Below, piece by piece: positions 239-17,229 of a stretch of 17,229 bases of DNA. Under the pieces are notes generated by a model. The model was not told the DNA's origin. It did no database searches and saw only the letters and a program-made list of their open reading frames with translations. The translations under genes and the position numbers were made by a program. This stretch comes from a virus (lineage: Duplodnaviria > Heunggongvirae > Uroviricota > Caudoviricetes). The stretch is taken from IMG/VR virus record IMGVR_UViG_2751185970_000003; one strand, given 5' to 3'. Each line of letters opens with the position of its first letter. Position 1 is the stretch's first letter.

Positions 239-773
239 CTCTATTGTTCTTGGTGATAATGACACCGGATTTAAACAGAATGGAGACGGTATTCTGGATG
301 TTTATGCTAATAGTCAGCGTGTATTCCGCTTTCAGAATGGAGTGGCTATTGCTTTTAAAAATATTCAGGCCGGGGATGGTAAAAAATTCACGCTATCCAG
401 CTCCAACAACTCCACAAAGAATGCAACGTTTAATTTATGGGGTGCTTCAACCCGTCCAGTAGTTGCAGAGTTAGGCAATGAGGCAGGATGGCATTTCTAT
501 AGCCAGCGAAATACAGATAACTCGGTAATATTTTCTGTTAACGGTCAGATACAGCCCAGCAACTGGGGGAATTTTGATTCACGCTATGTAAAAGATGTTC
601 GCCTGGGTACGCGTGTTGTTCAATTGATGGCGCGTGGTGGTCGTTATGAAAAAGCCGGACACGCAATTACCGGATTAAGAATCATTGGTGAAGTAGATGG
701 CGATGATGAAGCCATCTTCAGACCAATACAAAAATACATCAATGGCACATGGTATAACGTCGCACAGGTGTAA
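239..773 (+). pseudogene. Tail fibre C-terminal (variable, receptor-binding) fragment, P2 gpH type; 5'-truncated silent inversion cassette (Hv')
   Basis: The translation SIVLGDNDTGFKQNGDGILDVYANSQRVFRFQNGVAIAFKNIQAGDGKKF...[17 protein letters not shown] is nearly identical to the C-terminal ~175 aa of phage P2 gpH as I recall it. It has no start codon; its 5' end abuts the IS629 terminus at 238. The ORF-track entry 54..773 is a read-through across the IS end. Confidence 0.8.
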
Positions 774-776
774 ATT

Positions 777-1305
777 ATGCAGCATATTAAAAAATATTAA
801 GTCCGGAAATCCAAAAACAAAAGAACAATATCAGCTAACAAAGAATTTTGATGTTATCTGGTTATGGTCCGAAGACGGTAAAAACTGGTATGAGGAAGTA
901 AATAACTTTCAGGACGACACCATAAAGATTGTATACGACGAAAATAATATTATTGTTGCCATAACCAAAGATGCCCCAACGCTTAATCCCGAAGGCTTTA
1001 GTGTCGTTGAGATTCCAGATATAACAGCCAATCGTCGTGCCGATGATTCAGGGAAGTGGATGTTTAAGGACGGAACTGTGGTTAAGCGGATTTATACAGC
1101 AGACGAACAGCAACAACAGGCCGAATCACAAAAGGTCGCGTTGCTTTCTGAAGCTGAAAGCGTTATTCAGCCACTGGAACGCGCTGTCAGGCTGAATATG
1201 GCGATGGATGAGGAACGCACACGACTGGAGTCATGGGAACGCTACAGCGTTCTGGTCAGCCGTGTGGATACAGCAAATCCCGAATGGCCACAAAAGCCTG
1301 AGTAA
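777..1305 (+). pseudogene. Tail fibre assembly protein, P2 gpG type (G'), with a +1 frameshift after codon 3
   Basis: From about 787 onward the translation is [37 protein letters not shown]...[10 protein letters not shown], a P2 gpG-like tail fibre assembly protein. The ATG at 777 (atg cag cat) is in frame 0 but the body is in frame +1. An extra A at about 786 creates a stop (tat taa) after 7 codons in the ATG frame. Confidence 0.6.
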
Positions 1306-1310
1306 AAATT

Positions 1311-1330
1311 AAGGCCCAATATCGGGCCTT
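1311..1330. terminator. Bidirectional hairpin terminator between the convergent G' and G genes
   Basis: AAGGCCC-aatatc-GGGCCTT forms a 7-bp stem with a 6-nt loop. On the minus strand it is followed by a T-run (complement of 1305..1309), directly downstream of the minus-strand tfa stop at 1334. Confidence 0.55.
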
Positions 1331-1333
1331 CTC

Positions 1334-1867
1334 TCATTCTGGTTGTTCGGGAAACGTTACTGGCAGGCTGGAGGTGTCTGTAGATTCGACTTTCTGCGCA
1401 TAGAGCATCCACTCGGTTAATTTTTGTTTATTCTCGTCGGAAATGATGCCCAGTCGTAGCTGTGAGTCCCATAGCTGGGTTTTATCCCTGACAAGTTGCA
1501 ACAGGCTTTGCTTTTCATTTTCCGCTTGTTGCCTCTGCTCTTCCTCGGTATAAGTTCGCTTTATCACTACGCCATCTTTGAACAACCATTTCCCCGAAAT
1601 ATCAGCCCGGCGATTTGCTGTAATATCAGGTAATTCAACGACGCTTGCGCCTTCCGGATTAATTGCTGAAACATCCTTTTCAATACAAATAATAACGCCG
1701 TTATGGTAATAGACCATTTTCAAAGTGTCTGGCTGGAAATTCTTTTGTTCCTCATACCAGTTTTTTCCATCATCTGAATAAAGCCATTTGATGTTAAATT
1801 GCTTTGTTAGCTGGTATTGCTCTTTTGTTTTAGGGTTGCCAGCAGTAATGTTTTTTAAGTGCATCAT
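1334..1867 (-). CDS. G: Tail fibre assembly protein (expressed copy)
   Basis: 177 aa, [40 protein letters not shown]...; this is a tail fibre assembly/chaperone family protein. It starts 3 nt after the H stop and the region is AT-rich, as expected for a host-range module. Confidence 0.9.
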   Translation of the reverse strand: MMHLKNITAGNPKTKEQYQLTKQFNIKWLYSDDGKNWYEEQKNFQPDTLKMVYYHNGVIICIEKDVSAINPEGASVVELPDITANRRADISGKWLFKDGVVIKRTYTEEEQRQQAENEKQSLLQLVRDKTQLWDSQLRLGIISDENKQKLTEWMLYAQKVESTDTSSLPVTFPEQPE

Positions 1868-1869
1868 CG

Positions 1870-3855
1870 TTAAATACTCCCCGCGTTATACCACGTCCCA
1901 TTAATGCAATACTGAATTGGCCTTGCCTGTGTTGTATCAATTAATTCATCACGGTTTCCGTTAACTGAACCCGTAACGACATAACCTGACCTGTCAGACC
2001 AGCCGGGACCATTCCATGTCTGAACAGATGACAGACCGCCAAGGCGAATACCTGTAATAAACCTTGAGTTACATTCTGCCCGCGTATATGCACCAACATC
2101 TCCCGCTGAAGGTTTTCGTGTCGTGGTATAGAAATCTGACCAACCTAATTCAACCCCATAACCATCACGAGCCGACCTGTAGGAAATGCCACCATTTTTA
2201 TAATTCACACGGAATTGTACGGCAGGACAGCTACCAGCATTTATATTAAAGTGAAGAATTAATGCAGATGCACCACCAATCAGGGCGTTATATGCACCAC
2301 TATCCCAATTCCATCCAACGGATGTATCACCATTAACAGTATTACCTGTTTGTCGGAGTGCAAATGCATTGACATTTTTGGCACTAATTGAGATATCGCT
2401 AGAACCATCAAAACCAACTCCAGCAATTTTTCGTGCTGTTTTCAGCTTTGTTGCAGTAGCGGCATTGCCGGACAGTTCCCCAGAAAGGCCACCGCTGAAT
2501 GTTTGTCGATTGGTCCAGGTATTCGCTGTACTGAGTAACGGTATTTTCTCCCCGCTTGTGCCGAGTTCTCGTAAACCGAGGTATTCGATAACGGCAGCAA
2601 CGGTCGATTTCGCAAGAATATCCCGCCCGACTTTTGTCAGGGTTGCCAGGCTGGCGACATCATTCCCCGTAAAATACGGAAACCTGTCTGCCGCAGTAGC
2701 AAGCCCGGCCAGCGCCGTCAGGGTGGCATCTTTCGGTTGCTTACCCGCAAGCGCGTTAGTCATGGTGGTCGCAAAATTCGGGGCGTTTCCCAGCGCCGCC
2801 GCTAACTCGTTCAGCGTATTCAGTGCGTCAGGTGACGAATCTACAAGGGCGGCAATCGCAGCCATAACGAAAGCCGTGCTTGCGATTTGGGTATTATTCG
2901 TTCCCTGTCGCGCAGCTGGCGTTGTTGGCGTTCCGGTCAGCGCAGGACTGTTTAAGGGCGCTTTCTTGTTCGTTTCATCCATTACCGCCTTAACCGCTTT
3001 CGATGTCGCGGCCAGTGTTTCAGACGTGCTGTTGGTGGCACTACTGAGCTGGACTATCCCTTTTTGTGCCGTCGTGGCGTCCTGAGCGGTATATTTTGCG
3101 TTAGCAAGGTCATACGCGGCCTTTACTGCTTTCGGCGTTGCAGCCTGCGTTTCAGACGTGCTGTTGGTGGCGCTACTGAGCTGGACAAGGCCTTTTCGCG
3201 TCGTGCTGGCATCCTGCGCAGTATATTTACCGTTAGCAAGATCATACGCGGCCTTTACTGCTTTCGGTGTTGCAGCCTGCGTTTCAGACACGCTGTTAGT
3301 GGCGCTACTGAGTTGAACAAAGCCTTTTGCGGTCAGCGAGGCGTCCGGGTGACGTCGTGACTGTTCATGCTCTTTCAGTTTGTCATCCACGTAATCCACT
3401 GTGGCCATCACCATGGTGTTGTCCACGGTAAGCGCCACGGTGGCAGTGCTGGATACGGTCAGAATGGTGCGAAATGTTTGTGCACGACCGGACCCTTCGG
3501 CAACGGCTGGCTTGTAACTTTCGGCAGTATTTCCCACCGCGATTAAATCGCCGTGCTCATCAAATACACCAATTTCCCGGATCCAGAATCCGCCCGTTTC
3601 AGGAGGAATAACCAGCTCCGCAATAATGCGGTTCTGATGTGTTGCGTCCAGGATGACGCGATTAACAGTATGTCGCCACACCTCATGCACCAGACGGGTC
3701 TGCTTACTGTCTGGTGTGGGCAACGTGCCGCCACCGTCGCCCACGGCCATATGAGTCAGGCGGACAGGCTTACCATCTGGCGCGGCTACCTGAGCTAATT
3801 TTTTTGCACCCGTATCGGTGATAATGGTTTTAAATTTTCGTGTTGTGGTACTCAT
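1870..3855 (-). CDS. H: Tail fibre protein (P2 gpH homologue with a divergent C-terminal receptor-binding region)
   Basis: 661 aa. The N-terminal ~430 aa track P2 gpH (HEVWRH..., IAELVIPPE...GGFW, EHEQSRRHPDASLTAKGF, repeated QLSSATNSTSETLAATPKAVKA units, ...AVIEYLGL). The C-terminus after the crossover site is unrelated to the P2-type Hv' cassette at 239..773. Confidence 0.92.
   Translation of the reverse strand: MSTTTRKFKTIITDTGAKKLAQVAAPDGKPVRLTHMAVGDGGGTLPTPDSKQTRLVHEVWRHTVNRVILDATHQNRIIAELVIPPETGGFWIREIGVFDEHGDLIAVGNTAESYKPAVAEGSGRAQTFRTILTVSSTATVALTVDNTMVMATVDYVDDKLKEHEQSRRHPDASLTAKGFVQLSSATNSVSETQAATPKAVKAAYDLANGKYTAQDASTTRKGLVQLSSATNSTSETQAATPKAVKAAYDLANAKYTAQDATTAQKGIVQLSSATNSTSETLAATSKAVKAVMDETNKKAPLNSPALTGTPTTPAARQGTNNTQIASTAFVMAAIAALVDSSPDALNTLNELAAALGNAPNFATTMTNALAGKQPKDATLTALAGLATAADRFPYFTGNDVASLATLTKVGRDILAKSTVAAVIEYLGLRELGTSGEKIPLLSTANTWTNRQTFSGGLSGELSGNAATATKLKTARKIAGVGFDGSSDISISAKNVNAFALRQTGNTVNGDTSVGWNWDSGAYNALIGGASALILHFNINAGSCPAVQFRVNYKNGGISYRSARDGYGVELGWSDFYTTTRKPSAGDVGAYTRAECNSRFITGIRLGGLSSVQTWNGPGWSDRSGYVVTGSVNGNRDELIDTTQARPIQYCINGTWYNAGSI
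2566..2591. other. gix/hix/cix-like 26-bp crossover site for a Din-family serine DNA invertase, inside the tail fibre gene
   Basis: TTCTCGTAAACCGAGGTATTCGATAA matches about 21 of 26 positions of Mu gixL (TTCCTGTAAACCGAGGTTTTGGATAA, from memory). It sits at the constant/variable boundary of H, where the protein reads VIEYLGLRE. Confidence 0.6.
2988..3345. repeat. Tandem 132-bp (44-codon) repeats inside H, about 2.7 copies
   Basis: Units beginning at 3017, 3149 and 3281 are near-identical (gtttcagacgtgctgttggtgg...), with partial units at the flanks. They encode KGFVQLSSATNSxSETQAATPKAVKAAYDLANGKYTAQDAxTT repeated. Confidence 0.85.
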
Positions 3856-3857
3856 GC

Positions 3858-5276: not shown

Positions 5277-5279
5277 GAT

Positions 5280-5630: not shown

Positions 5631-6208
5631 TGCGGGCCTCCTGTCGAATCGCTGCCACCTTTAACGCCACCGTGTTTATGCGTATGCACTGTGATGCCGT
5701 TTGAGGTGAAATTGCCGCCGCTGTGCGTGATATTGCCGCTCATCTTTCCCCCTTTTGTGACGTCAAGCGTCGCCGTTCTCAGAAGGTCTGTGCATTCCAC
5801 GACGGGCGTATCCAGTGTCACGCTGACGGATGCCTGCAGGGTGGCTGTTTTCATGCCGCTGGCGCTCAGTGCGCCTGCGTCCGCGTCGTAGCGGAACACC
5901 GCGCCATCCGGCGCGCTGACCACGATTTCTTTCAGGCTTTTGCCGGGGGCCGGAATGGCATCACTCCACAGGCTGCCAATTATCATGGCGGTTTCCGGGT
6001 TGCCGCCAATGCAGGCAATTACCACCTGTTCGCCTGGTGATGGCGGCAGCCACACATTGAAGGCTCCCGCGCGAGAGGTGTTCCAGCGCAGCCAACCTGT
6101 TTCCAGTTCGCCGCTGCGAACGCGCACGCGCCAGGACTTCTCATCAACTTCAGAGATGATCCCGGTGCGGATGATATTGCTCAGTAGCCGCATGAGTTCT
6201 GCGCTCAC
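5627..6208 (-). CDS. V: Baseplate spike protein gpV
   Basis: 193 aa, with the NIIRTGII, GEQVVI and C-terminal SNGITVHTHKHGG motifs characteristic of the P2 gpV spike. Confidence 0.9.
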   Translation of the reverse strand: MSAELMRLLSNIIRTGIISEVDEKSWRVRVRSGELETGWLRWNTSRAGAFNVWLPPSPGEQVVIACIGGNPETAMIIGSLWSDAIPAPGKSLKEIVVSAPDGAVFRYDADAGALSASGMKTATLQASVSVTLDTPVVECTDLLRTATLDVTKGGKMSGNITHSGGNFTSNGITVHTHKHGGVKGGSDSTGGPQ

Positions 6209-6840
6209 CGTACAGCCTCCGCAATCCGGCCCAGCACCGTGTTATAAATCAGACGCTCATCTGCCTGGCTGATACCCAGCAGCTCACGTACCGGGTAATC
6301 GGTGAAAATGCCCGGCGCAACCTGATCGCGCTCACCGAACTGATGAACGCGTGCAATACGTGCGGCCACGCCGCTGTAACCCACCGTCACACCGGAAGCA
6401 TCTGCACGGGCTTTCAGGTAGCGGGCGGTGCGCAGTTTTACGAACATGGGGACGCGCTTTGTGCTGTCCTGGTTGATGCGCCGGGTGCGTATTTCCAGAA
6501 AGCGGTCGATGTCATCCCGGTAAAACGTGCGGATGCTGTTTTTATCCTCATCCCACCCGGTGATGGTTCGCCCGTATTTCCCCGTGTCGTGATGCCAGTT
6601 TTTCAGCGTGCGTGCTTCGTTATTCCAGATAAAGCGAATGCGCTCCTGTATCCGGGTTACGTGGCGTCTGCGTGGTGTCCATGCGGTCCCGTCCGGCGCT
6701 TTCTGTGGCCGGATACGTGCCTGCTGGGCGCGGCGTAAATCCTGTGCCAGCTTTCTGGCGATGTTATTGATGGCCTGCTGATTCAGGCTGTCGCGGATGG
6801 CCTCAAAGGTTTCATCCACGCGAGTGAATGCCTTATCCAT
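6205..6840 (-). CDS. S: Tail completion / virion morphogenesis protein gpS
   Basis: 211 aa from the ATG at 6840, which has a GGGGTGA ribosome-binding site; the ORF track starts at a GTG at 6849. The PDGTAWTPRRR, FVKLRTARYLK and ARIARVHQFG motifs fit the P2 gpS family, and the gene lies between R and V. Confidence 0.8.
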   Translation of the reverse strand: MDKAFTRVDETFEAIRDSLNQQAINNIARKLAQDLRRAQQARIRPQKAPDGTAWTPRRRHVTRIQERIRFIWNNEARTLKNWHHDTGKYGRTITGWDEDKNSIRTFYRDDIDRFLEIRTRRINQDSTKRVPMFVKLRTARYLKARADASGVTVGYSGVAARIARVHQFGERDQVAPGIFTDYPVRELLGISQADERLIYNTVLGRIAEAVR

Positions 6841-7300
6841 CGCTTTCACCCCACGTCACATCCTGGAATACATGCGACCAGTCGCCTTCGGAAGATGGCA
6901 GGCGGGGTTTTGGCTCCAGCAGGTGTTCTGCCTGCGGTGTGCCCTGACTGCTGCGCGTGATGCGAACGCGTTCCCGCAGGGGGAGCGTAAACAGGAGATC
7001 GGCGCTGTCATCGTCATTGATAACGGCGGAAAATTTGATGTCCTGATTACGCTCAGGGTTGAGCAACAACTGTGGCTGATTTTCGGATAACCACGCCAGC
7101 AGCGGCAGCGTGAGGTCGTCCAGCTCCCCGGCGTAATCCATGACAAACATCACCATCTGATAGCGGTAAACAAACGATGGGGTTTCTCCGGTCGTTTCAA
7201 TGTTGCCGCTCTCCACGAAAATGGTGAATTTTTCCGGGTTAGCCTGACACCATCGGCATGAACGGGTCATGGCTTCACGCAGGGAATCAGTTTTCAGCAT
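6833..7300 (-). CDS. R: Tail completion protein gpR
   Basis: 155 aa, MLKTDSLREAMTRS...LLAWLSENQP...; same length as P2 gpR with clear N-terminal similarity. Confidence 0.88.
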   Translation of the reverse strand: MLKTDSLREAMTRSCRWCQANPEKFTIFVESGNIETTGETPSFVYRYQMVMFVMDYAGELDDLTLPLLAWLSENQPQLLLNPERNQDIKFSAVINDDDSADLLFTLPLRERVRITRSSQGTPQAEHLLEPKPRLPSSEGDWSHVFQDVTWGESDG

Positions 7301-7577
7301 GGTTGTTATCCTCGTTGTTCAGTCGTTGCAGCCTGCGCTGTTCCAGTAATTCAATGGCCCGTTTATCCGCGTTACAGGTTTCCAGTGCATCCAGAAGGCG
7401 GTCGCCCCATATACCGAGATTTCCCCATGTGGGAGTGTCAGGGAAGGGGGGAGGCGTTACCGGTATGGTCAGCGTCTGCGGTATAAGCCGGACTGACGGC
7501 GCTGGCAGTGGCGCGTTCTGCGTGCCTGCGCAGCCTGTCAGTAAAACGAGCGTCAGGCAAAGCGTGGGCGCATTCAT
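7287..7577 (-). CDS. lysC: Outer-membrane spanin lipoprotein (Rz1-like, LysC)
   Basis: 96 aa from the ATG at 7577: MNAPTLCLTLVLLTGCAG has a lipobox, followed by a proline-rich stretch (PLPAPSVRLIPQTLTIPVTPPPFPDTP). It begins inside the 3' part of lysB in another frame and extends beyond it. The ORF-track start at 7607 is a GTG. Confidence 0.8.
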   Translation of the reverse strand: MNAPTLCLTLVLLTGCAGTQNAPLPAPSVRLIPQTLTIPVTPPPFPDTPTWGNLGIWGDRLLDALETCNADKRAIELLEQRRLQRLNNEDNNHAEN

Positions 7578-7845
7578 CTTTTGCAATATCGTTGCGTAGC
7601 TGTTCACGTCTTACCTCTCCGTCCTGATTGCGTTGCTGATTTTCCACGCGGAGTTGCGCCAGCACCTGCTGCATATCCTGTACCCCGGCGCTGATGATAT
7701 TCAGGGTGTCGGCGGTACTTTTCAGGGTGCTGGCCTGCGCTTCGTTTCTGGCGTTCTCCCGGCCCAGCGACCACGACAGACGCATGGATGTTCCCCATCC
7801 GGCAGTCAGAAGGAAAGCGACGCCAAGCGTGGGCCAGAGCTTCAT
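7438..7845 (-). CDS. lysB: Inner-membrane spanin (Rz-like, LysB)
   Basis: 135 aa from the ATG at 7845 (MKLWPTLGVAFLLTAGW...), with an N-terminal transmembrane segment followed by a charged coiled-coil. It overlaps the endolysin stop by 4 nt (ATGA). Confidence 0.8.
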   Translation of the reverse strand: MKLWPTLGVAFLLTAGWGTSMRLSWSLGRENARNEAQASTLKSTADTLNIISAGVQDMQQVLAQLRVENQQRNQDGEVRREQLRNDIAKDECAHALPDARFTDRLRRHAERATASAVSPAYTADADHTGNASPLP

Positions 7846-8234
7846 GCCGGATAGGCTCCGTGTGGTAACTGAAAATGCGGTCCGTCTTTCAGGGTCTTCC
7901 AGTCGCCGCCCCATTCCACCGGAATATTCAGTTCCCGGCTGGCCTGTCTGAATGCTGCTGCGATTTTTTCGTACAGCGGCCATTCCCATGACATCTGGCT
8001 GCCGATATAAGCCACAACATCCACGGCATGCCCCGTAAGGTGGCGGCTGTTCATGGTCTGGCTCTTACCCGTGGCCACCAGTTGCTTCTGGCGGTAACGG
8101 CTGCGCAACCCTTCGGTGATACCAAAATCCACTTCCGAGATTTCCAGTGCCCGTCGGGTCACTTTCACCAGATCAGGATTTACACCCTGCAAATTCTTTT
8201 CGCTCCGGCTGCTGAATTTAAATGTGTTGCTCAT
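7842..8234 (-). CDS. Endolysin, peptidase M15 / L-alanyl-D-glutamate peptidase type
   Basis: 130 aa with the zinc-peptidase signature SRHLTGHAVDV and a downstream DGPHFQ, placed between holin and spanins. This is not the lysozyme-type P2 gpK. Confidence 0.75.
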   Translation of the reverse strand: MSNTFKFSSRSEKNLQGVNPDLVKVTRRALEISEVDFGITEGLRSRYRQKQLVATGKSQTMNSRHLTGHAVDVVAYIGSQMSWEWPLYEKIAAAFRQASRELNIPVEWGGDWKTLKDGPHFQLPHGAYPA

Positions 8235-8554
8235 TCGTCCTTCTCCTTCACCCTGCGATTAAAGGCCGCAATAACCTTGTCGCGTGCTTTCTCTGCACCC
8301 ATAAAACCGATTGATGCGCCGATAAACGTCACGGCATCTTCAGGAAACCCGAAGAAGCGCAACGACCCGGCCACGGCCATGGCAAGAACGCCGCACGCCA
8401 GCGATCCCGTTACGGTCTGAACCAGTGTTCGTCCGTCATAAAGGCTCATCAGCGCGGAAATGCTGACCGCCGCGCCTACTGCATACACCGTTGGCAGGTG
8501 GTCAAAGAGCCACGCAATAACCTGCTCTGTGATCCCTGTTTGAATGGTGCTCAC
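8231..8554 (-). CDS. Holin (three predicted transmembrane segments, charged C-terminus)
   Basis: About 107 aa from the GTG at 8554, with a GGGGGAG ribosome-binding site 6 nt upstream. Hydrophobic segments TVYAVGAAVSISALMSL, VTGSLACGVLAMAVAGSL and AVTFIGASIGFMGA are followed by a KR-rich tail. It sits immediately upstream of the endolysin with an ATGA overlap. Confidence 0.7.
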   Translation of the reverse strand: MSTIQTGITEQVIAWLFDHLPTVYAVGAAVSISALMSLYDGRTLVQTVTGSLACGVLAMAVAGSLRFFGFPEDAVTFIGASIGFMGAEKARDKVIAAFNRRVKEKDE

Positions 8555-8556
8555 TG

Positions 8557-8757
8557 CTACTCCCCCCACAACTGAATCATTTCTCGTTTCTTCTTCTCCG
8601 GCTCCGGCATCTCCACTTCCTGCCCGGCGTCCAGAAATACCTGCTGACAGAGTCCGGGGTTGGCATCCAGCACCTTTTCGGTGACGCCCTGCGTCGTGCC
8701 GTAGTACCGGAAACAGAGCGAATCCACGGTGTCGCCTTCCAGTGCCTTCACTTTCAT
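8557..8757 (-). CDS. X: Tail protein gpX
   Basis: 66 aa from the ATG at 8757 (MKVKALEGDTVDSLCFRYYGTTQGVTEKVLDANPGL...LWGE), resembling P2 gpX (MKTFALQGDTLDAICVRYYG...). It overlaps the L stop by 1 nt (TGATG). Confidence 0.88.
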   Translation of the reverse strand: MKVKALEGDTVDSLCFRYYGTTQGVTEKVLDANPGLCQQVFLDAGQEVEMPEPEKKKREMIQLWGE

Positions 8758-9251
8758 CAGCACAACTCCGCAAAGATTCGCGGGCGGCACAGAATGTCAG
8801 AGATGGCCCAGCTCACATCACGCCACAAATCCGATGTCTGTATATCCAGAGCGTCTGCCCGGCGGTCGCCCTTGTCCGTAGTGTCTGCATCACGATAACG
8901 CTCCAGAATCAGGGCGCGCGTGGCGGTATAAACAGCATTGCGCCAGTGCCAGAGATTGACGCTTTCTCCGTTAATTACGGGTGCCGGAACATCGGCCAGC
9001 GTCTGATGGCCAGCTGCCTGCTGTTCCTGCTGCCATGCTTCCAGCTCGCGGGTAACGTGTGCCACAGCCCCGGTGGCAGTATGCAGCAGGCGGGAGGTGG
9101 TCACGCGCCCCGGCAGTCGTACCGCCAGACGCAGCTCGCGCAGCACAATATCCGGCCAGAATGCACCCGCTGAAATGCGGGTATCGCCATCATCGGTATC
9201 GGTGATGTCGTCCTCTGCGGGTCCGGGTTCAGTTCTGGCAACTATAGTCAT
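8757..9251 (-). CDS. L: Head completion / stabilisation protein gpL
   Basis: 164 aa from the ATG at 9251, with an AGGAG ribosome-binding site 9 nt upstream. Its position between M and X and its size fit P2 gpL. Confidence 0.8.
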   Translation of the reverse strand: MTIVARTEPGPAEDDITDTDDGDTRISAGAFWPDIVLRELRLAVRLPGRVTTSRLLHTATGAVAHVTRELEAWQQEQQAAGHQTLADVPAPVINGESVNLWHWRNAVYTATRALILERYRDADTTDKGDRRADALDIQTSDLWRDVSWAISDILCRPRIFAELC

Positions 9252-9354
9252 GGGGTTCACTCCTGAAAAAAAATCGGGCGGTGGGTGCGCGGTGTAAACG
9301 GTCACGGAGTCAAACTGGAACACCGCGCACGCCGCCCGCTGACGGGGTCAGTCG

Positions 9355-10155
9355 TTAACCGCGCTTCGCCTTCTGCGTCGCGGTGGTTTTTCGTGTTGCA
9401 GGCTTCCGCGTTGTCTTTTTACTTTTGCTGCTTTCGTCCTGCGCCTGCTGTGCGCTGGCGTCTTCTGGTTCGGCTGCGGAATCGGCTTTTTTCAGGGCGC
9501 GGGAAAGGGTTGCAATCTCGCGTTTCACACCTGCGTTCGGGTTCAGGTGCATTGCTTCGCGCAGCAGCTTCAGTGACAGGGCCATGCTGTCCGCATCACT
9601 CAGGCCACGGCGGGCAAAGGCGCACGCTTTGCATAATTTGGCGCGCACTTCGTCCGGCATGTCCTGGTCGGTGACAATCTCCCGGAGGGTGTCCAGTGGT
9701 TCGATAAAGGCGGACAAATCCGCGTCGGCATCCGTCCCGGCCTGCGTCAGTACCGGATTACAGATTTCTTCGGTCAGTACCGTGGCAGCAGTACGGCCAA
9801 AGTTATCCGGCATGATGAGGTTGTGACGGACTACATACGCGCCGATACGCAGCGCAAGCGGAAGATCGCCACAGTCAATCGCCCACACCATCAGCGTGGC
9901 AATCACTTCATCCTGCTGCCCGCCGTCAGCCTCCAGCGTTCCCTCAATCCAGCCGGAAAAATCCGGCAACAACTCTTTTTTGATGGCGGCTTTCGCGCTT
10001 CTGGCCTGTACGCCCTTAAGCCGGGCCTGTGCCAGACGCAGACGATACAGCACCTCTTCATGCGCGGTACGCGCGGCGTGGTCCACGCCTTCATTCGCCC
10101 GGCCTGCGCGCTGTGCCATCACGTTCTGCCAGTGTTGTTGTGCAGGAGTAATCAT
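9355..10155 (-). CDS. M: Terminase endonuclease (small) subunit gpM
   Basis: 266 aa, with a GGAGAG ribosome-binding site upstream of the ATG at 10155. Its position after the capsid gene and its basic C-terminal tail (KKTTRKPATRKTTATQKAKRG) fit P2 gpM. Confidence 0.85.
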   Translation of the reverse strand: MITPAQQHWQNVMAQRAGRANEGVDHAARTAHEEVLYRLRLAQARLKGVQARSAKAAIKKELLPDFSGWIEGTLEADGGQQDEVIATLMVWAIDCGDLPLALRIGAYVVRHNLIMPDNFGRTAATVLTEEICNPVLTQAGTDADADLSAFIEPLDTLREIVTDQDMPDEVRAKLCKACAFARRGLSDADSMALSLKLLREAMHLNPNAGVKREIATLSRALKKADSAAEPEDASAQQAQDESSKSKKTTRKPATRKTTATQKAKRG

Positions 10156-10172
10156 TTTTGCTCTCCGTTACA

Positions 10173-10191
10173 GGCGGGCATGATGCCCGCC
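10173..10191 (-). other. Perfect 19-bp palindrome / stem-loop between capsid gene N and terminase gene M
   Basis: GGCGGGCAT-g-ATGCCCGCC has 9-bp arms. It lies between the N stop (10201) and the M ribosome-binding site and is a candidate attenuator, RNA processing or stability element. Confidence 0.5.
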
Positions 10192-10200
10192 GTGAGTTGA

Positions 10201-11252
10201 TTAGCTGTCGGCGAACTTCAGGCCAGTAACCATCGCGCACTTGCCATAGTCTTCAACGACATAAGCGTCATTGATGGACTGGTAGGTGGCGATGCGGTTG
10301 TATTCCGGCTCGTCTTTCATCAGGCGACGCATTGAACCTTTCTGCCAGTAAATCGACAGGTTGTTGAACGAGGTGATCAGCATCGTTGCATCCGGGAAGA
10401 ACGGCGCAAGGAACACGCCCAGCCCGCCAATGGTGCGCGATGACAGGATGAGCTGCCCGGCGAGTAATTCCGCATTGGGATTCTGGCCGCTGATGCTGTT
10501 CAGCACGGGCAGACGCAGCGAGTTAAACAGGTTGCGCCCCATAATCACCACGAGGTCGTCAGCTTCCTTGTGCCATTCATCCAGCAGGGATGAACGCGCG
10601 TCCTGTACCAGTGCATCAGCGTTCGCATACTTACCCGCGTGCGCCACGGTGTTGTCCATGTTGCGGGAGGTCAGCGTCACGTCATTCATAACGCGTTCGC
10701 TGGCGTCGGTTCTGATGTGCTCCAGCCAGCCCACGTTAACGTCCTGAAGCAGCTTGTTGGTGCTGAAGTTGGACTCATCCGCGTGAGACGTGCCGTTGAA
10801 ACCGATCATGATGCGGTCAAGCGCCACCTGTCGGGCAATCTGTGCGCTGATGCGGGACTGAAAATCAGGGTGTGCCGACCAGGCATCAAGCTGCGGATAC
10901 GAAATAAACGTGTCGTAGTTCACCTGTTCACACTGATATTTGCGGTTTTTCAGATCAACCACGTTATTCGGGTTACGGCGTTTTGTGCCGTCATAACTGG
11001 TATTCGTGCGCGCAATCGGTCCTGTGGTATCCAGGAGGATTTTTTCGCCTTTCTGGTCGGTCACGCCGATCACGTTATTTTTTTCGTAAATTCGGTACTT
11101 TCCTTTGAGGCGTTTTCAAAACGCTGCTGCACCGCGGGTTCCACGGTAAATCGCGACACCAGTGCAGATACCGGGATATTATTAAGCGACACCTGCTGCG
11201 CCATATAGCAACCCAGCTTGTTGCGGGTAATATCTGACATCACCAGATTCAT
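10201..11252 (-). pseudogene. N: Major capsid protein gpN, interrupted by a 1-bp frameshift in a homopolymer (T7 at 11078..11084)
   Basis: The ATG at 11252 has an AAGGAG ribosome-binding site 9 nt upstream. The first 60 codons (...FTVEPAVQQRFENASKESTEFTKK) end at a stop at 11070; the rest (...NVIGVTDQKGEKILLDTTG...NLSIYWQKG...YVVEDYGKCAMV) is in the -1 frame. One extra T/A in the run would give a continuous ~350-aa P2 gpN-like protein. Confidence 0.75.
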
Positions 11253-11275
11253 AAAAAATTTGCTCCTTTGTCTAA

Positions 11276-12112
11276 TCAGAAGTCGGCCAGCTGGTCGGAG
11301 GCTGCGCCCGTTGCGGTGAAGCGGTTCTGCGGATCGCCGTCCTGCGTGCGCAGTTTTTCCTTCAGTGCTGCCAGCTCTGTGGTCAGTGACGTAATTTTCT
11401 GGCGGTCCTGCTGATGGCGGGTTTCCAGCACATTAAAACGGTCGATAATGTCGGCCTGTGACGTTGCGACGCCTTCCACCGCTTCCTGAATACGGGAAAA
11501 ACTGGCGTCATCCGCTTTGCGGCCACGGCCAATAATCCCCATTACGCGGTTAAACCACTGGGTGCCTTCTTCCTGGCGTTGTTCTGCCATTTCGATGATT
11601 TCAGACTCGATGGCTTCGGAGATAAGCGGCGCTTCACCCTGGATACTGTTAAACGTCATCACCGCCTGACGTTGCTGTGCCGTGAATTTCAGGCGCTCAG
11701 TGCCCAGGCTTGCCGGGGTGTCGGTCATCGCCAGCCCGACCAGATAGGCGCGCCCGTTAACGGAGAACTGCGGGTGCAGTTCGATACTGGAATAGATTTT
11801 CTTGCCGTCCGCAACAAGCTGCTTCATGCGCTCGGTCGGTTCGATTTCTGCATACAGCGCAGTACGTCCGGCCAGCGGACCTTCCGTAATCTCTTCCGTA
11901 CTCAGTGCGGTGACATCGCCCATTGCGGAAAATTCGCTTGACGGGCATGGCGAGAGATAGTGCTCAACGTTCACGCGGGCAGCGTAAACATCCGGGTTGA
12001 AGTTCTCGGCGGCTTCACGCAGATGCACCGGACTGATTTCACGGCCATCAACAGTTGATCCGGAGACAGCCACGCGAAACTTTTTGCGGGATGTCTTTTT
12101 TTCATTAGCCAT
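11276..12112 (-). CDS. O: Capsid scaffolding protein gpO
   Basis: 278 aa from the ATG at 12112 (MANEKKTSRKKFRVAVSGSTVDGREISPVHL...YLVGLAMTDTPASLGTE...), resembling P2 gpO (FRIGVEGDTCDGRVIS..., CYLVGLAVTDDPASLGTE). The ORF-track start at 12145 is an upstream extension. Confidence 0.88.
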   Translation of the reverse strand: MANEKKTSRKKFRVAVSGSTVDGREISPVHLREAAENFNPDVYAARVNVEHYLSPCPSSEFSAMGDVTALSTEEITEGPLAGRTALYAEIEPTERMKQLVADGKKIYSSIELHPQFSVNGRAYLVGLAMTDTPASLGTERLKFTAQQRQAVMTFNSIQGEAPLISEAIESEIIEMAEQRQEEGTQWFNRVMGIIGRGRKADDASFSRIQEAVEGVATSQADIIDRFNVLETRHQQDRQKITSLTTELAALKEKLRTQDGDPQNRFTATGAASDQLADF

Positions 12113-12266
12113 AGTTTTTGCCCCTCTGACTGGTTCTTCAGTCATGATGGCAAAGCGTAACAGGCTGATACAAAGGGCTTTTGTTGTAAGAAAACGGCCA
12201 GAACAGAGGGTTAAGGAGAACAGTTTCGCGCGCGGGTAATCTTCCTGTAATTACTCAGGGGGAGCA
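12113..12266. promoter_or_regulatory. Divergent O / P intergenic region; expected site of the late promoters for the O-operon (minus) and P-Q operon (plus)
   Basis: A 154-bp non-coding gap between divergently transcribed O and P, with ribosome-binding sites at both ends. This is the same arrangement as in P2. I could not find a clean TGT-N12-ACA activator box. Confidence 0.4.
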
Positions 12267-14018
12267 ATGATTCAGGACGCTTTTGTGCGCCAGCGTGCGC
12301 GGCAACTTTACTGGCAGGGTTATCCGCCCGCAGAAATATCACGTCTGATGGGAATAAACCCGAACACGATTTATGCGTGGAAAAAACGTGACCAGTGGGA
12401 TGAAACGCCACCCGGGCAGCGTGTCACGCAGTCCATCGATGCGCGCCTCATCCAGCTTACTGAAAAACAGAATAAAACAGGCGGTGACTTTAAGGAAATA
12501 GACCTGCTGACCCGGCAGCTTAAAAAGCTGCATGATGGCCAGCCGGATGTGATGGCCGCAGGAAAGAAAGGCCGGGCGAAAAAACTCAAAAATCATTTCA
12601 CGCCGGAACAGATTGCCGCACTGCGGGAAAAAATCATCAGCAGGCTGGAGTGGCATCAGCGGGGCTGGTTTGACTCCCTGACCCTTTGCAGGGAAGCCGG
12701 GATACGTAACAGGATGATCCTGAAATCCCGACAGATTGGGGCGACCTGGTATTTTGCACAGGAAGCACTGCTGATGGCGCTGCGTGACGATGTGGCGCAA
12801 CCTTACCAGCGTAACCAGATTTTTTTGTCTGCGTCGCGTCGTCAGGCGTTCCAGTTTAAAAGCATTATTCAGAAGGCCGCGGCTGAAGTTGATGTGGAGC
12901 TGAAAGGGGGCGATAAAATCATCCTCTCCAACGGCGCAGAGCTGCATTTTCTCGGCACTTCTGCTGCGTCGGCACAGTCCTATACGGGCAATTTTTATTT
13001 TGATGAATTTTTCTGGGTCAGTCGCTTTGCTGAACTGCGCAAGGTGGCTGGCGCTATGGCAACCCTCAGCGGACTGCGGCGCACCTACTTCTCCACGCCA
13101 TCCACCGAAACGCACGAGGCATACGCCTACTGGAACGGCGACCGCTGGAACGAGAAAAAGGCCTCGCATAAACGCCAGCGTTTTTCTGTGGACTGGAAAA
13201 CGCTGCATAACGGGCTTATCTGCCCTGACCGGACGTGGCGGCAAATTGTCACGCTGGAAGATGTGGTTAATCACGGCTGGAAACACACCGATATCGACGA
13301 AATTCGTGATGAAAACACCGAAGACGAGTTCCTCAATCTCTATATGTGTGAGTTTGTCCGCGAAGGGGAATCGGCATTTAACCTGAATATCCTGATTGGC
13401 TGCGGCGTTGACGGATACGACGACTGGAAAGACTGGAAACCTTTTGCTCCCCGCCCGATGGGGAATCGTCCGGTATGGATTGGGTATGACGCAAACGGCA
13501 GCAGTGGCAACGGCGACAGCGGCGCTGTGTCCGTGGTGGTTCCTCCGTCTGTTCCTGGTGGCCGTTTTCGAACGGTGGAGACGCGACGCGTTCAGGGGCT
13601 GGAGTTTGAAGAACAGGCCAGAGTCATTGAAGAGTTCACGTGTCGCTACAACGTGGAACACATCGGCATTGATGTGACGGGCGGGAACGGGGAGGCTGTT
13701 TATCAGATAGTGAAACGGTTTTTCCCTGCCGCTATTCCGTACACCTTCACGCTGTCATCAAAACGGTCGCTGGTACTGAAAATGCTGCAAATAATGCGTG
13801 CCGGGCGGTGGGAATACGATCGCGCCGAACGCGAGCTGGTCGCGGCCTTTAACGCCGTGCGTAAGGTGAAAACACCGGGCGGCTTTATCACTTACGAAAC
13901 GGACCGAGCGAGGGGGATCAGCCACGGCGACCTTGCGTGGGCAACCATGCTTGCTGTCATTAACGAACCGATTGGCGGCGAAGGAGAAAACGAGCGTTTC
14001 ACGGTTATGGAGTTCTGA
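12267..14018 (+). CDS. P: Terminase large subunit (ATPase) gpP
   Basis: 583 aa, with a GGGGGAG ribosome-binding site. The N-terminal MIQDAFVRQRARQLYWQGY...ISRLMGINPNTIYAWKKRDQW region and the overall size match P2 gpP. It overlaps the Q start by 1 nt (TGATG). Confidence 0.93.
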   Translation: MIQDAFVRQRARQLYWQGYPPAEISRLMGINPNTIYAWKKRDQWDETPPGQRVTQSIDARLIQLTEKQNKTGGDFKEIDLLTRQLKKLHDGQPDVMAAGKKGRAKKLKNHFTPEQIAALREKIISRLEWHQRGWFDSLTLCREAGIRNRMILKSRQIGATWYFAQEALLMALRDDVAQPYQRNQIFLSASRRQAFQFKSIIQKAAAEVDVELKGGDKIILSNGAELHFLGTSAASAQSYTGNFYFDEFFWVSRFAELRKVAGAMATLSGLRRTYFSTPSTETHEAYAYWNGDRWNEKKASHKRQRFSVDWKTLHNGLICPDRTWRQIVTLEDVVNHGWKHTDIDEIRDENTEDEFLNLYMCEFVREGESAFNLNILIGCGVDGYDDWKDWKPFAPRPMGNRPVWIGYDANGSSGNGDSGAVSVVVPPSVPGGRFRTVETRRVQGLEFEEQARVIEEFTCRYNVEHIGIDVTGGNGEAVYQIVKRFFPAAIPYTFTLSSKRSLVLKMLQIMRAGRWEYDRAERELVAAFNAVRKVKTPGGFITYETDRARGISHGDLAWATMLAVINEPIGGEGENERFTVMEF

Positions 14019-15064
14019 TGAGCAGAAAAAATAAAAAAGTGCGCATGAGTTCACGCATTGATCTCGCTGATGCGCTCAGGAAAGAATCATCGCTCAGTGC
14101 ATTCACATTTGATGGTCCTTATCGCCTGACCGGGCATGACCTGCTGGACAATATGTACTGTGCTGATAACGGGCGGTGGTATGAAACCCCGGTGGACTGG
14201 TACGGTCTGGCAAGAGCTGCCCGGCAAACGTCCTGGCATCAGTCTGCGCTTTATTTTAAGCGCAATGTATTGCTCGGTTGCTACATCCCGCACCCGCTGC
14301 TTTCCCGGCAGGATTTCTCGGCGCTGGCGCTGGACTGGTTTGTGTTCGGTAACGCATTCCTTGAGCTTCGAAGCAATATGCTCGGCGAACCGCTTAAATT
14401 ACGGCACGCCCTGGCGAAATACATGCGACGCGGAAGCGATCTTGAATCATGGAGGTATGTGCAGGATGGCAAGGATGCGTTTCAGTTTCGCCCAGGCAAA
14501 GTGTGTCACCTGATGAATCCTGACATTAACCAGGAAATCTACGGCATGCCGGAATATCTCGGCGCATTACTCTCGGCCAGCCTGTCTCATTCGGCGGACA
14601 TGTTCAGAAAACTGTATTACGACAACGGATCCCACGCCGGGTGCATCATCTACATCGGTGCCGCGCAGGTAAACCGCGAAAGCATGGACTCCCTGAAAGA
14701 AACGCTACAGGGTGCGCGTGGTGGTGGTGCGTTTAAAAACGTGCTCATTCATGCGCCCAACGGGGGCAAAGAGGGGGTGCAAATTTTGCCGTTCCAGCAG
14801 ATCACCGCAAAGGATGAGTTCATGAATGTTAAGGCGGCATCCCGTGATGATGTGCTGGCTGCGCACCGCGTTCCGCCGCAACTGATGGGGGCGATGCCGG
14901 GTGAAAAAAGTGCGTTTGGTGATGTGGAGAAGGCCGCGCGGGTTTACGCAATTAACGAGCTGATGCCCGTCATGGAGGCCATGAAGCACATCAATGACTG
15001 GCTTGGCGAAGAGGTGATCCGCTTTAACCCTTACGCACTGTTAGACATCCAGCCCACATCCTGA
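14018..15064 (+). CDS. Q: Portal (capsid vertex) protein gpQ
   Basis: 348 aa, MSRKNKKVRMSSRIDLADALRKES...; the size and position downstream of P fit P2 gpQ. Confidence 0.92.
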   Translation: MSRKNKKVRMSSRIDLADALRKESSLSAFTFDGPYRLTGHDLLDNMYCADNGRWYETPVDWYGLARAARQTSWHQSALYFKRNVLLGCYIPHPLLSRQDFSALALDWFVFGNAFLELRSNMLGEPLKLRHALAKYMRRGSDLESWRYVQDGKDAFQFRPGKVCHLMNPDINQEIYGMPEYLGALLSASLSHSADMFRKLYYDNGSHAGCIIYIGAAQVNRESMDSLKETLQGARGGGAFKNVLIHAPNGGKEGVQILPFQQITAKDEFMNVKAASRDDVLAAHRVPPQLMGAMPGEKSAFGDVEKAARVYAINELMPVMEAMKHINDWLGEEVIRFNPYALLDIQPTS

Positions 15065-15091
15065 CGCGCTTCGCTTGTCTGCTGCTTCGCC

Positions 15092-15114
15092 GGGGCATAA
15101 AAAATTTATGCCCC
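15092..15114 (+). terminator. Hairpin immediately downstream of Q
   Basis: GGGGCATAAA-aaa-TTTATGCCCC has a 10-bp stem and begins 28 nt after the Q stop. There is no strong U-tract, so it may act as an RNA stability element or weak terminator. Confidence 0.45.
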
Positions 15115-15283
15115 GACTCTCCAGCTCCTGTATCAGTCAGATAATTTCACGACGCCTTCCAGTTTATCGCCACCATCGACGGTCAGACTCTTACGCAATC
15201 CCACCGCGTTGACTGCATGTTCTCGCCGCCTCAGTGCGATTTTGACGGCCTTACCTTTCACCCCATCAAATCAGAATCCCTCA

Positions 15284-15314
15284 CGTATTTTTCACGCTCA
15301 GCGTGAGAAATACG
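15284..15314. other. 31-bp near-perfect palindrome in the cos-proximal non-coding region
   Basis: CGTATTTTTCACGCT-c-AGCGTGAGAAATACG has 15-bp arms with a single mismatch; it is a candidate protein-binding or packaging element. Confidence 0.6.
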
Positions 15315-15393
15315 GCCATTCTGTCGTGTCGCTGCGACATCGTTAAGGGAACGCTATTTACCCCCTGAAACGCGGGCTGTTCCCCCGTCACCT

Positions 15394-15418
15394 GCGCGCA
15401 GAAAAAGCGCGTTTTTTT
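15394..15418 (+). terminator. Rho-independent terminator (plus strand)
   Basis: GCGCGC-agaaaaa-GCGCG followed by TTTTTTT at 15412..15418. Confidence 0.6.
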
Positions 15419-15488
15419 GTGCACGCACGGATCCTTGACGGATCCAGCCGCCACGCGGGCTGGAAGGGCAAAAATTCGTTCAAAAAAA

Positions 15489-15515
15489 TTGTGCAAATTT
15501 GTGCACTATTGTGCA
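15489..15515. repeat. Three direct TTGTGCA repeats with exact 10-bp phasing
   Basis: aTTGTGCAaa tTTGTGCAct aTTGTGCAgc at 15489, 15499 and 15509, preceded by an A-tract. The one-helical-turn spacing suggests an array of protein-binding sites. Confidence 0.6.
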
Positions 15516-15517
15516 GC

Positions 15518-15541
15518 AGGGCGATGTGCGATTATCGCCCT
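15518..15541 (-). terminator. Stem-loop 14 nt downstream of the Ea22-like gene stop (possible terminator)
   Basis: AGGGCGAT-gtgcgatt-ATCGCCCT has an 8-bp stem. No immediate U-tract follows on the minus strand. Confidence 0.3.
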
Positions 15542-15554
15542 GGTTTGAGGGGGA

Positions 15555-16145
15555 TCAGGTGTTATTTTTATCTGTCGTCAGTGGGCTAAACCATCCACAA
15601 TTTACATCGCATGACTGATGCGTTCTGTCCTCGTGTTTCTCCTGCCACAATGCTTTTCCGCCAGCCTTTATGATGGCTCTTTCAACATCCCGCTCGTATC
15701 GCAAGGGCTGAAATACGTCATTAATGAAATATTCGCTTATGTCCGGAAGCGATACTGCAAAATTATTTGTTTGTTGCGCCGTCCTGCTATGCAGCAAAGC
15801 GGCATGCTTTAATGCGTCCTGTGCTTTCTGGAATTTAAGTGCATAGTCAGTGGCGATTTTTTCCAGTTCAGCGATTCGGTTGTCTTTGGTTTCCAGCCAA
15901 TCAAGTAGCGCCAATACTTCAGGATCCCCGACATCCAACACTGTTACGCGTGATTTTTCATAATGTTCGTCAGCAAGAGTTCGGCCAATTTTGAAATCTC
16001 CATCATCACCATAACCGGAGCAGGCATAAACAACCTGTGCTCCAGATATTCGCTGAATTGACATTTCCTCGCCGCAAATAGGGCATTTCGGTACTGGCAC
16101 AGGTGAATAACGTTCACGTAATGCCTGATAGTTGATTTCGCTCAT
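15555..16145 (-). CDS. Ead/Ea22-like family protein with an N-terminal zinc-ribbon (CPICGEEM...YACSGYG) and a central coiled-coil; function unknown
   Basis: 196 aa, with an AAGGAGA ribosome-binding site 8 nt upstream of the ATG. MSEINYQALRERY... and PEVLALLDWLETKDNRIAELEK resemble the Ea22-like proteins of enterobacterial prophages that I remember. The gene is visibly lower in GC than the flanking phage genes. Confidence 0.7.
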   Translation of the reverse strand: MSEINYQALRERYSPVPVPKCPICGEEMSIQRISGAQVVYACSGYGDDGDFKIGRTLADEHYEKSRVTVLDVGDPEVLALLDWLETKDNRIAELEKIATDYALKFQKAQDALKHAALLHSRTAQQTNNFAVSLPDISEYFINDVFQPLRYERDVERAIIKAGGKALWQEKHEDRTHQSCDVNCGWFSPLTTDKNNT

Positions 16146-16208
16146 TAAGTCGTTCTCCTTGTTTATGTTCTGAGGTGGAGAGCAGGGCGAACTCGCCCTG
16201 ATGTTGTG

Positions 16209-16520
16209 TTATTCAGGAAATAACGCCCGGATATTTCCGGCCATCTGACTGGTTATCTGTGCGGTTGATACTGGCTGTGATGCGGGGCGTTCTGTCCTGG
16301 TTTGTGTCACTGATAACGCTTCATCACCAGCCCATGCAGCCAGTCGATAAGCCTCTGCCGGATTCATTTTCAGAAGTGCCAGCCCGGCCAGAAAAGCCAC
16401 GCGTTGGCCGCTTTTGCGGGCTTCTGGTGTAAGGCTGTCCAGCCAGGCGCATGCTTCTCCTTCGTTCTTGACGGCGGTGGGCTTCAGATAGAAACTTATC
16501 CGTCTGGTTGGAGTCGTCAT
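16209..16520 (-). CDS. parR: ParR/StbB-like ribbon-helix-helix centromere-binding protein
   Basis: 103 aa from the ATG at 16520 (MTTPTRRISFYLKP...AWLDSLTPEARKSGQRVAFLAGLALL...), resembling R1 ParR (RRTIAFKLNP...LDSIPQGERSRLNRAALTAGLALY). It starts 4 nt after the parM stop, the same gene order as R1 parM-parR. Confidence 0.7.
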   Translation of the reverse strand: MTTPTRRISFYLKPTAVKNEGEACAWLDSLTPEARKSGQRVAFLAGLALLKMNPAEAYRLAAWAGDEALSVTQTRTERPASQPVSTAQITSQMAGNIRALFPE

Positions 16521-16524
16521 TGGT

Positions 16525-17130
16525 TTACTCCTTGTCCATTGCGTACAGCCCATTAACCAGAGCAAACTGTGGCACCCCGTCCGCGATGAAAGTCGCATTA
16601 ACTCCGCAGGCTTCGCGGATAGCGGGTGCCACAATCTCCGCCCCTCCACCGACAACCATCACCCGCCCGTAACCCGAAAAAACCGCCAGCGCGCGGATCA
16701 CGCGTTGTTTCAGTGTTTCTTCCTTTTCACGAATTACCGCCATCAGGCTGGCGTAATGCGCGTCATTGTGGATGTGCTGGCGCAGCCAGGCTTCATCATG
16801 GCGATGTTCGATAATGGTATTGGCGATGTGGTGACTGGTGCGCATACCGTTAGTGGCCATCACCGACAGTACGGCATCGGCCATCAGAGAAACGCCCACG
16901 TGTGGATCGCAAAACACCTGGCTGATACCTGCCAGTTGCCCCTGAACCTTTGCCACATCCAGCGTGGTTCCGCCCAAATCCACAATCAGCAGGGATTCAA
17001 ACGGACTCATGTCAGCCAGTGCCTTAAAGCCAGCCGGAATGGATTCAGGCATAACCTGTACGTTACGGATAGTGAATGCTTCGCCGTTCTGGTACTCCAC
17101 CGGGCGCATGACGTTCGCTTTTTTGCGGTT
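16525..17130 (-). pseudogene. parM: ParM/StbA-like actin-type partition ATPase, 5'-truncated (about 115 N-terminal residues missing) by an IS insertion
   Basis: The translation ...NRKKANVMRPVEYQNGEAFTIRNVQVMPESIPAGFKAL...LLIVDLGGTTLDVAKV...VFSGYGRVMVVGGGAEIVAPAI...FALVNGLYAMDKE aligns with R1 ParM from about residue 120 onward (phosphate-2 and adenosine motifs present). The coding sequence abuts the IS terminus at 17131 and the only in-frame start is a TTG inside the IS end. Confidence 0.75.
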
Positions 17131-17229
17131 TGAAGTGGTCAACAAAAACTGGCCACCGAGTTAGAGTTTTTCCAGTATCGATTTTCCGATTCGTTTGGGG
17201 GGAACCCACCGTTATATTCGTGCGGTCTT
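17131..17229. mobile_element. Terminus of an IS3-family-like insertion sequence (IS911-like end), continuing beyond the window
   Basis: The sequence begins TGAAGTGGTCAACAAAAACTGGCCACC, which resembles the IS911-type terminal repeat (TGAAGTGG...TGGCCACC) as I recall it, exactly where ParM homology stops. No ORF is included in the 99 bp available. Confidence 0.5.

Follow-up and report, generated by a model that had tools for sequence, protein, structure and literature searches.

The Ea22 proteins of phage lambda and of Stx phages are the closest described systems to the gene analyzed here, and the experimental data on the family come solely from these phages. Ea22 is a tetrameric protein with a central coiled coil and a dimeric C-terminal domain, it is transcribed early, and it favours lysogeny and host survival; two-hybrid screens with lambda Ea22 yielded no partner (PMC10834534, PMC7093339). 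In the Stx phages, the variants V1 to V3 share a conserved first half, the C-terminal domain is swapped between variants, and several variants can occur per genome (PMC10834534). As the preliminary description of the present DNA stated, the family is without an established mechanism (PMC10834534).

A second comparison is offered by the old and tin genes of phage P2, a non-essential cargo located between the replication gene A and cos/Q. The old-tin genes have their own promoter with mapped transcript starts beside cos, and they are transcribed towards A, against the early operon. P2 Old is an ATPase-Toprim nuclease. The gpA-gpQ cos-adjacent hotspot was defined by Rousset et al. 2022 in 18,150 E. 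coli P2-like loci, about a quarter of which carry a partition system (PMC9122126).

The window (the whole stretch of 17,229 nucleotides that was analyzed) derives from a P88-like prophage (Xuanwuvirus, Peduoviridae), which belongs to the P2 family and resides in E. coli. Phage P88_4B11 (NC_049391) and many E. coli chromosomes carry the cos-ea22-stbB-parM stretch with 99.9% identity. In intact relatives, the gene order is A (replication endonuclease), parM, stbB, the Ea22-like gene and cos, followed by Q and P on the opposite strand. The previous assignment of the gene to the position of the P2 old/tin locus, between A and Q and beside cos, was therefore correct. The ORF itself was present as described, on the minus strand, with an ATG start and a TGA stop (Table 1). 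Plus-strand ORFs inside the gene (e.g. 15618..15812, 64 aa) were dismissed as antisense shadows that move together with the cassette (cluster 2). RefSeq labels the product "ead/Ea22-like family protein", and this exact protein was entered at the gpA-gpQ cos-adjacent hotspot in Table S5 of Rousset et al. 2022 (PMC9122126). The gene, its family label and its residence in a P2-type hotspot are thus already public through annotation and a published supplementary table, and this cataloguing of both gene and location had been missed by the preliminary description. As far as the evidence goes, this is an unremarkable accessory gene that had been catalogued before. The present analysis adds the boundaries of the cassette, a dissection of the protein into three modules, the recognition of a widely shuffled 38-aa C module, and the contrast between its transcription architecture and that of old-tin.

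Table 1. Features at the cos-adjacent end of the window (positions are those of the window; residue numbers refer to the Ea22-like protein).
Feature	Position	Strand	Remarks
Ead/Ea22-like CDS	15555..16145	-	196 aa + TGA; WP_001289966; P88_4B11 gp56
Shine-Dalgarno AAGGAGA	16154..16160	-	8 nt 5' of ATG; strong
N module, residues 1-75	15921..16145	-	leader MSEINYQALRE and Cys3 small beta-hairpin head
Coiled-coil core, residues 76-125	15771..15920	-	conserved junctions LALLDxLE and RIAELE are recombination breakpoints
C-terminal module, residues 126-169	15639..15770	-	F.V.LP...YFI..VFQPLRYERD.E.A...AGG
27-aa tail	15558..15638	-	predicted disordered; unconserved; neutral, dN/dS ~1.1
3' hairpins after Ea22-like stop	15491..15542	-	CAGGGCGAT-N8-ATCGCCCTG, then GTGCAC-AAATTT-GCAC and T run
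Putative cos cohesive-end region	15452..15470 (approx.)		inferred from NC_049391 ends
Replaceable cargo cassette	15500..16190		outside it, sequence common to relatives with unrelated cargo
GC hairpin CAGGGCG-N4-CGCCCTG	16183..16200		9 nt after stbB stop; no U-tract on minus strand
stbB / ParR-like partition gene, 103 aa	16209..16520	-	upstream neighbour, same strand
parM 3' part	16525..17130	-	truncated by IS911 insertion
IS911 orfB-proximal end	17131..17229		transposase genes in same direction as parM-stbB-ea22

The GC content of the Ea22-like ORF is 45.2% (GC3, 41%), compared to 55.9% for the structural region at 2400-15064 (sd 2.5%, minimum 50.1%, in 591-nt windows that match the size of the ORF), while the neighbours stbB, parM, Q and P have values of 54-55%. 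The ORF is a clear compositional outlier relative to the structural genes, as had been noted previously. When relatives with unrelated cargo were compared, the shared sequence ended at approximately 15497-15500 on the cos side and at approximately 16190-16196 on the stbB side, inside a conserved GC hairpin, which delimits a cassette of about 0.7 kb with the Ea22-like gene as its single gene. The earlier claim of a separate acquisition is upheld by the low GC content together with this replaced cassette and its sharp edges. Most slot variants retain the GC hairpin at 16183-16200, with a loop that varies, and it forms the boundary of the variable cassette on the stbB side. A hairpin of identical stem sequence (CAGGGCG...CGCCCTG) is located at 15517-15542, on the other side of the Ea22-like gene. 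A second region of low GC content (39-46%) was observed at the other end of the window (1-2400). It contains two opposed tail-fibre assembly genes, both Caudo_TAP (697..1305, plus strand; 1334..1867, minus strand), which adjoin a 661-aa tail-fibre gene (1870..3855, minus strand), an arrangement reminiscent of a host-range segment that can be inverted or exchanged.

The ends of the linear NC_049391 record map to positions 15470/15471 of the window, which places the putative cos about 85 bp from the Ea22-like stop codon. The position of cos rests on these record ends because the P2 cos junction, when aligned locally to 15065-15554, gave only a weak match of 20 nt. The 3' hairpins listed in Table 1 have a fold z of -4.9 and are likely to mark the end of the transcript before cos. 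Three TTGTGCA repeats with a 10-bp spacing are located at 15485-15515, between the putative cos and the stop codon. These repeats contain the cos-side edge of the cassette, overlap the terminator-like hairpin, and could be a candidate binding array for terminase or another protein. A scan of 14800-17229 against Rfam at E<=1 returned no RNA family.

The content of the slot in related prophages was surveyed in IMG/VR, where 80 loci were fetched with a StbB query and 66 of these contained both stbB and the portal gene. The stbB-to-cos slot in the 66 loci ranged from 988 to 4169 nt and had 27 architectures. The Ea22-like gene was resident in 19 loci, in addition to truncated or module-swapped forms, and it was also found in P2-like prophages of E. 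albertii, so that it does occupy the equivalent hotspot of relatives, a point that the preliminary description had left to be checked. Known or candidate defence or toxin-antitoxin cargo included IetA with IetS in five loci (L034, L045, L048, L049 and L073; slot of about 4.17 kb), AbiLi/AbiLii in one (L059), an RmrA-like protein with a 183-aa partner in three (L067, L069 and L078), DUF3800/PDC-M04A in two (L090 and L093), DUF4760 in four, and a Doc/Phd-like pair in three (assigned by eye, from sequence only). Small modular proteins were further residents. Because the 27 architectures include IetAS, AbiL, RmrA-like, DUF3800 and Doc/Phd cargo, the stbB-to-cos slot is a real hotspot for cargo and defence, as previously proposed, and the survey agrees with the hotspot of Rousset et al. 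2022 (PMC9122126). Like the residents of that hotspot, the Ea22-like gene lies between A and Q beside cos, in a slot whose content is variable among collinear relatives.

The commonest resident (24/66 loci) was a protein of 111-123 aa with a ClpX C4 zinc finger (PF06689, E=1.5e-17). It is the first gene after stbB in L056, L088, L036 and others (the ORF in L101 is at 2084-2419) and often precedes Ea22-like or related modular genes; it may imitate the ClpX N-domain. Another neighbour was a protein of 197 aa that matched neither Pfam nor PADLOC and was found in L054, L057, L064, L068, L070, L071, L075, L076, L077, L082 and L083. In 10 of these 11 loci, the gene that directly follows it is an Ea22-like gene with the C half of the window gene. 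The two may form a two-gene unit.

Membership in the Ea22 family, which the preliminary description had proposed, was supported by a match of Pfam PF13935 (Ead_Ea22) to residues 2-140 with E=2.1e-32 (113 bits; gathering cut-off 27). Lambda Ea22 matches the same model with E=1e-28. In a direct BLASTP comparison of the two proteins, the similarity was confined to the 11-residue leader MSEIN(Y/S)QALRE, in which 10/11 residues are identical. L80, L81, I91 and L94 are invariant in the alignment, and the coiled-coil junction motifs LLDE and RIAELE are present. The matches to PHROGs were to families of unknown function only, and the NCBIfam scan resulted in no match.

The AlphaFold2 model of the full-length protein has a low overall confidence (pLDDT 60) and was hence left out of the fold search. 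It contains one long helix at residues 75-123 (pLDDT 77-83), in agreement with the coiled coil described earlier, whose quoted string is present in the protein. The head includes a beta-hairpin at residues 29-41, with a pLDDT of only about 65-72. When the C part was modelled alone, its core reached a pLDDT above 90 and formed a short helix, a beta-hairpin and a helix, and the 27-aa tail was disordered. The protein is a mosaic of a Cys3 head, a coiled coil, a small conserved C module and a disordered tail. The remote-homology and structure check that had been suggested matched no solved structure or fold: phmmer and profile searches of PDB sequences resulted in chance matches only (E>0.3), and Foldseek with the confident C-module model gave 0 matches in the PDB and a best E of 1.6 in BFVD. 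The dimeric C-terminal domain of the lambda type (beta-beta-alpha-beta-beta-alpha) was absent by BLASTP, by phmmer/profile searches and by Foldseek against the PDB.

The N-terminal region had been described as a zinc ribbon of the form CPxC...C. The CPIC motif (C21 and C24) and C42 are indeed present; however, these are the only three cysteines, there is no second CxxC, and the protein does not have the two knuckles and four ligands of a zinc ribbon. The zinc-ribbon Pfam models gave best E values of 0.014-0.11, all below their cut-offs. The label is weaker than was implied, although the conserved H61 could be a candidate fourth ligand for zinc beside the three cysteines.

The homologue search yielded 515 proteins, all of which are Ead_Ea22 members. 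Pairwise coverage placed the breakpoints of the mosaic at residues ~73, ~93-96 (the RIAELE motif) and ~112-125. Heads with about 75% identity to the N module occur in lambdoid and CPS-53-like prophages, where the Cys3 head carries many other C modules in early-left operons and is adjoined by genes for DUF551, YfdP and DUF2303. The head-coding DNA has matches of about 83-86% in O157:H7 prophages and in plasmids of about 100 kb. Residues 1-113/138 are approximately 51-53% identical to ES18 gp41, ST64B sb32 and proteins of the phage-plasmid D6, which share the Cys3 N head and the start of the coiled coil; in contrast, these uncharacterised proteins have other C modules and belong to other phage families. 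Conversely, at least three further N heads precede the C half (residues 73-196) in the P88-like slot, in some cases within tandem Ea22-like genes. One such tandem arrangement, at 5405-6540 in L009, L010 and L011, consists of genes of 199 aa and 179 aa that overlap by 4 nt, one with the Cys3 head and the other with the C half of the window gene.

The C-terminal domain had been called unrelated, and this was not the case, since it is a conserved module common to other prophage proteins and not an orphan. An exhaustive HMMER scan with residues 124-196 returned 21 representative clusters, and in 21/21 of these a module of about 38 aa with 16 invariant positions is located at the extreme C-terminus. 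Its fusion partners include Ea22-type coiled coils, DUF551-type leaders and a dATP/dGTP pyrophosphohydrolase domain. The module, YFI..VFQPLRYERD.E.A...AGG, is a recurrent C-terminal end-piece of enterobacterial prophage proteins (P0124-P0140); further fusions are to several unknown N-terminal regions, and no Pfam model spans the 38 aa. A relationship of the C module to DUF551 was considered and rejected, as DUF551 matches were found only in the fusion partners, with marginal scores, and none in the window protein.

The N head is under purifying selection. Relative to the E. albertii orthologues, dN/dS was approximately 0.23 in the head, 0.5 overall and 1.1 in the tail (small counts). Among 5426 complete E. 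coli genomes, 129 carry the whole cassette in intact form.

With respect to expression, the Ea22-like gene shares its strand with A-parM-stbB. A simple consensus scan, which could miss a weak or non-sigma-70 promoter, found no sigma-70-like promoter in the 63-bp stbB-ea22 spacer, and the same type of scan found none upstream of parM in an intact relative. In the E. albertii P2-like prophages without parMR, the order is A, a 153-aa ORF, a ClpX zinc-finger ORF, a 174-aa ORF and the Ea22-like gene, the start of which overlaps the preceding ORF by 4 nt. The shared strand, the lack of a promoter match in these scans, the terminator-like 3' hairpin and the 4-nt overlap in E. albertii point to co-transcription of the gene with the early operon, as lambda ea22 is co-transcribed from pL. 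In the window prophage, IS911 lies upstream; the window lacks about 118 codons for the N-terminus of ParM, and the IS911 end is 99% identical to the IS911 of Sf6 and SfII. Expression in this prophage may thus differ from that in intact relatives, and the orientation of IS911 is such that read-through could still reach the Ea22-like gene.

The reading that we prefer, with a probability of only about 0.4, is that the protein is an early-expressed Ea22-type oligomeric adaptor that modulates the choice between lysis and lysogeny. The gene would be a non-essential accessory gene of the P88-like prophage that encodes an Ea22-type modular coiled-coil protein. As the last cistron of the rightward early/replication string A-parM-stbB-ea22, it would be made after infection or induction. 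The central helix would oligomerise, as in tetrameric lambda Ea22, so that several copies of the Cys-rich N head and the small conserved C module are displayed, and these modules would engage a partner from the host or the phage in stoichiometric fashion. If Ea22 of lambda and the Stx phages is a guide, lytic development would be attenuated or delayed, and host survival and lysogeny favoured. This reading is based on the PF13935 membership with the near-identical leader, the long predicted helix flanked by small folded modules, the uniform family membership of the homologues with a mosaicism like that of Stx-phage Ea22 (PMC10834534), and the tetrameric, pro-lysogenic and early-transcribed character of lambda Ea22 (PMC10834534, PMC7093339). 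The operon context, including that of the N-module relatives in early-left operons of lambdoid-type prophages, and the constraint on the head with the persistence of the intact cassette in E. coli genomes also argue for it.

The likeness to lambda Ea22 (NP_040612, exo-xis region) extends to the overall layout, since in both proteins a long coiled coil separates a short N region from a small C-terminal domain, and both genes are non-essential and the last or a large gene of an early operon. In contrast to lambda Ea22, the window protein has a Cys3 N head of 60 aa that is missing in lambda, and its gene is located between stbB and cos of a P2-family prophage and not between exo and xis. Because the similarity consists of 11 residues and profile-level features of the coiled coil, and because the lambda C-terminal domain is absent, the transfer of the lambda function to the window protein is weak. 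The Stx-phage variants resemble the window gene in that tandem copies occur at the P88 slot too; they differ in their C modules (e.g. DUF551 in V2), and they reside in lambdoid prophages, the only setting in which function was assayed (PMC10834534). A further argument against the adaptor reading is that the slot holds bona fide defence systems in relatives, which would favour a conflict-related role.

One such role is that of a single-gene anti-phage defence or superinfection-exclusion factor, expressed from the prophage as a functional equivalent of P2 old/tin. We consider this unlikely. It would fit the gpA-gpQ cos-adjacent location, the presence of IetA/IetS, AbiLi/ii, RmrA-like, DUF3800 (PDC-M04A) and Doc/Phd cargo in the same slot of related loci, and the low-GC cassette with sharp boundaries. 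However, the defence role raised in the preliminary description gained no support from the searches that were performed: PADLOC-DB 2.0 gave 0 families at E<=0.1, the protein is not among the entries of the DefensePredictor supplements, and Rousset et al. 2022 did not include the gene in the systems that they cloned and assayed (PMC9122126). The protein is also small and has no catalytic, enzymatic or effector domain, and the Ea22 family resides in early lytic operons of lambdoid phages. The parallel with old/tin that had been drawn earlier holds for the slot and does not hold for the direction and promoter architecture, since the window gene runs in the direction of A and has no predicted promoter of its own. 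Because of the direction shared with A-parM-stbB, the lack of a sigma-70-like promoter in the scans and the 4-nt overlap in relatives, an early-operon accessory gene like lambda ea22 fits better than a prophage-expressed exclusion gene.

The same early-operon placement is compatible with a second conflict-related role, in which an early counter-defence or host-takeover protein would use swappable N and C modules to neutralise host immune sensors, proteases or regulators. The extreme shuffling, with at least four alternative N heads per C half and many C modules per head, the tandem Ea22-like paralogues in some loci, and the frequent presence in the slot of the candidate ClpX zinc-finger mimic would all be in line with this role. 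On the other hand, the protein has no homology to any known anti-defence protein, the phenotype reported from lambda ea22 deletion is pro-lysogenic and not a plating defect (PMC7093339), the two-hybrid screens with lambda Ea22 gave no partner, and the dN/dS of the head is well below 1. On balance, this explanation is unlikely, to the same degree as the defence role.

More speculatively, the Ea22-family proteins of the cos-adjacent slot and of the lambdoid exo-xis region could represent a class of modular single-gene immunity or counter-immunity proteins, which we regard as rather improbable. The coiled coil would then serve as the invariant scaffold for oligomerisation, the exchangeable N heads and C modules would recognise the targets, and the 38-aa YFI..VFQPLRYERD module would act as a common effector or docking element. 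If true, this would account for the hotspot residence, the mosaicism and the tandem paralogues.

It is very unlikely that the gene is a by-product of recombination without a selected function, i.e. a mosaic remnant at the hotspot. Truncated or frameshifted copies do occur in some loci (clusters 45, 58 and 81), the tail evolves neutrally, and the operon in the window is disrupted by IS911. Nevertheless, the full-length ORF is kept at >=99% identity in more than 100 complete genomes, it has a strong Shine-Dalgarno sequence, and the constraint on the head and the 16 invariant residues of the C module across divergent fusion partners argue against a remnant. An accessory role in the adjacent ParM/StbB partition module, which the location directly downstream of stbB on the same strand might suggest, is rejected as largely refuted by distribution and is extremely improbable, since most P88-like loci with parM-stbB carry other cargo instead of an Ea22-like gene, the gene is present in E. 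albertii P2-like prophages without parM/stbB, and its modules are also found in lambdoid prophages.

Few genes from the lambda era still lack a mechanism, and Ea22 is among them. The clean 0.7-kb, single-gene cassette in otherwise collinear phages constitutes a natural isogenic series for the study of Ea22 function. Such a series could separate lysogeny control, exclusion and counter-defence from one another, and could distinguish the contributions of the N head from those of the C module.
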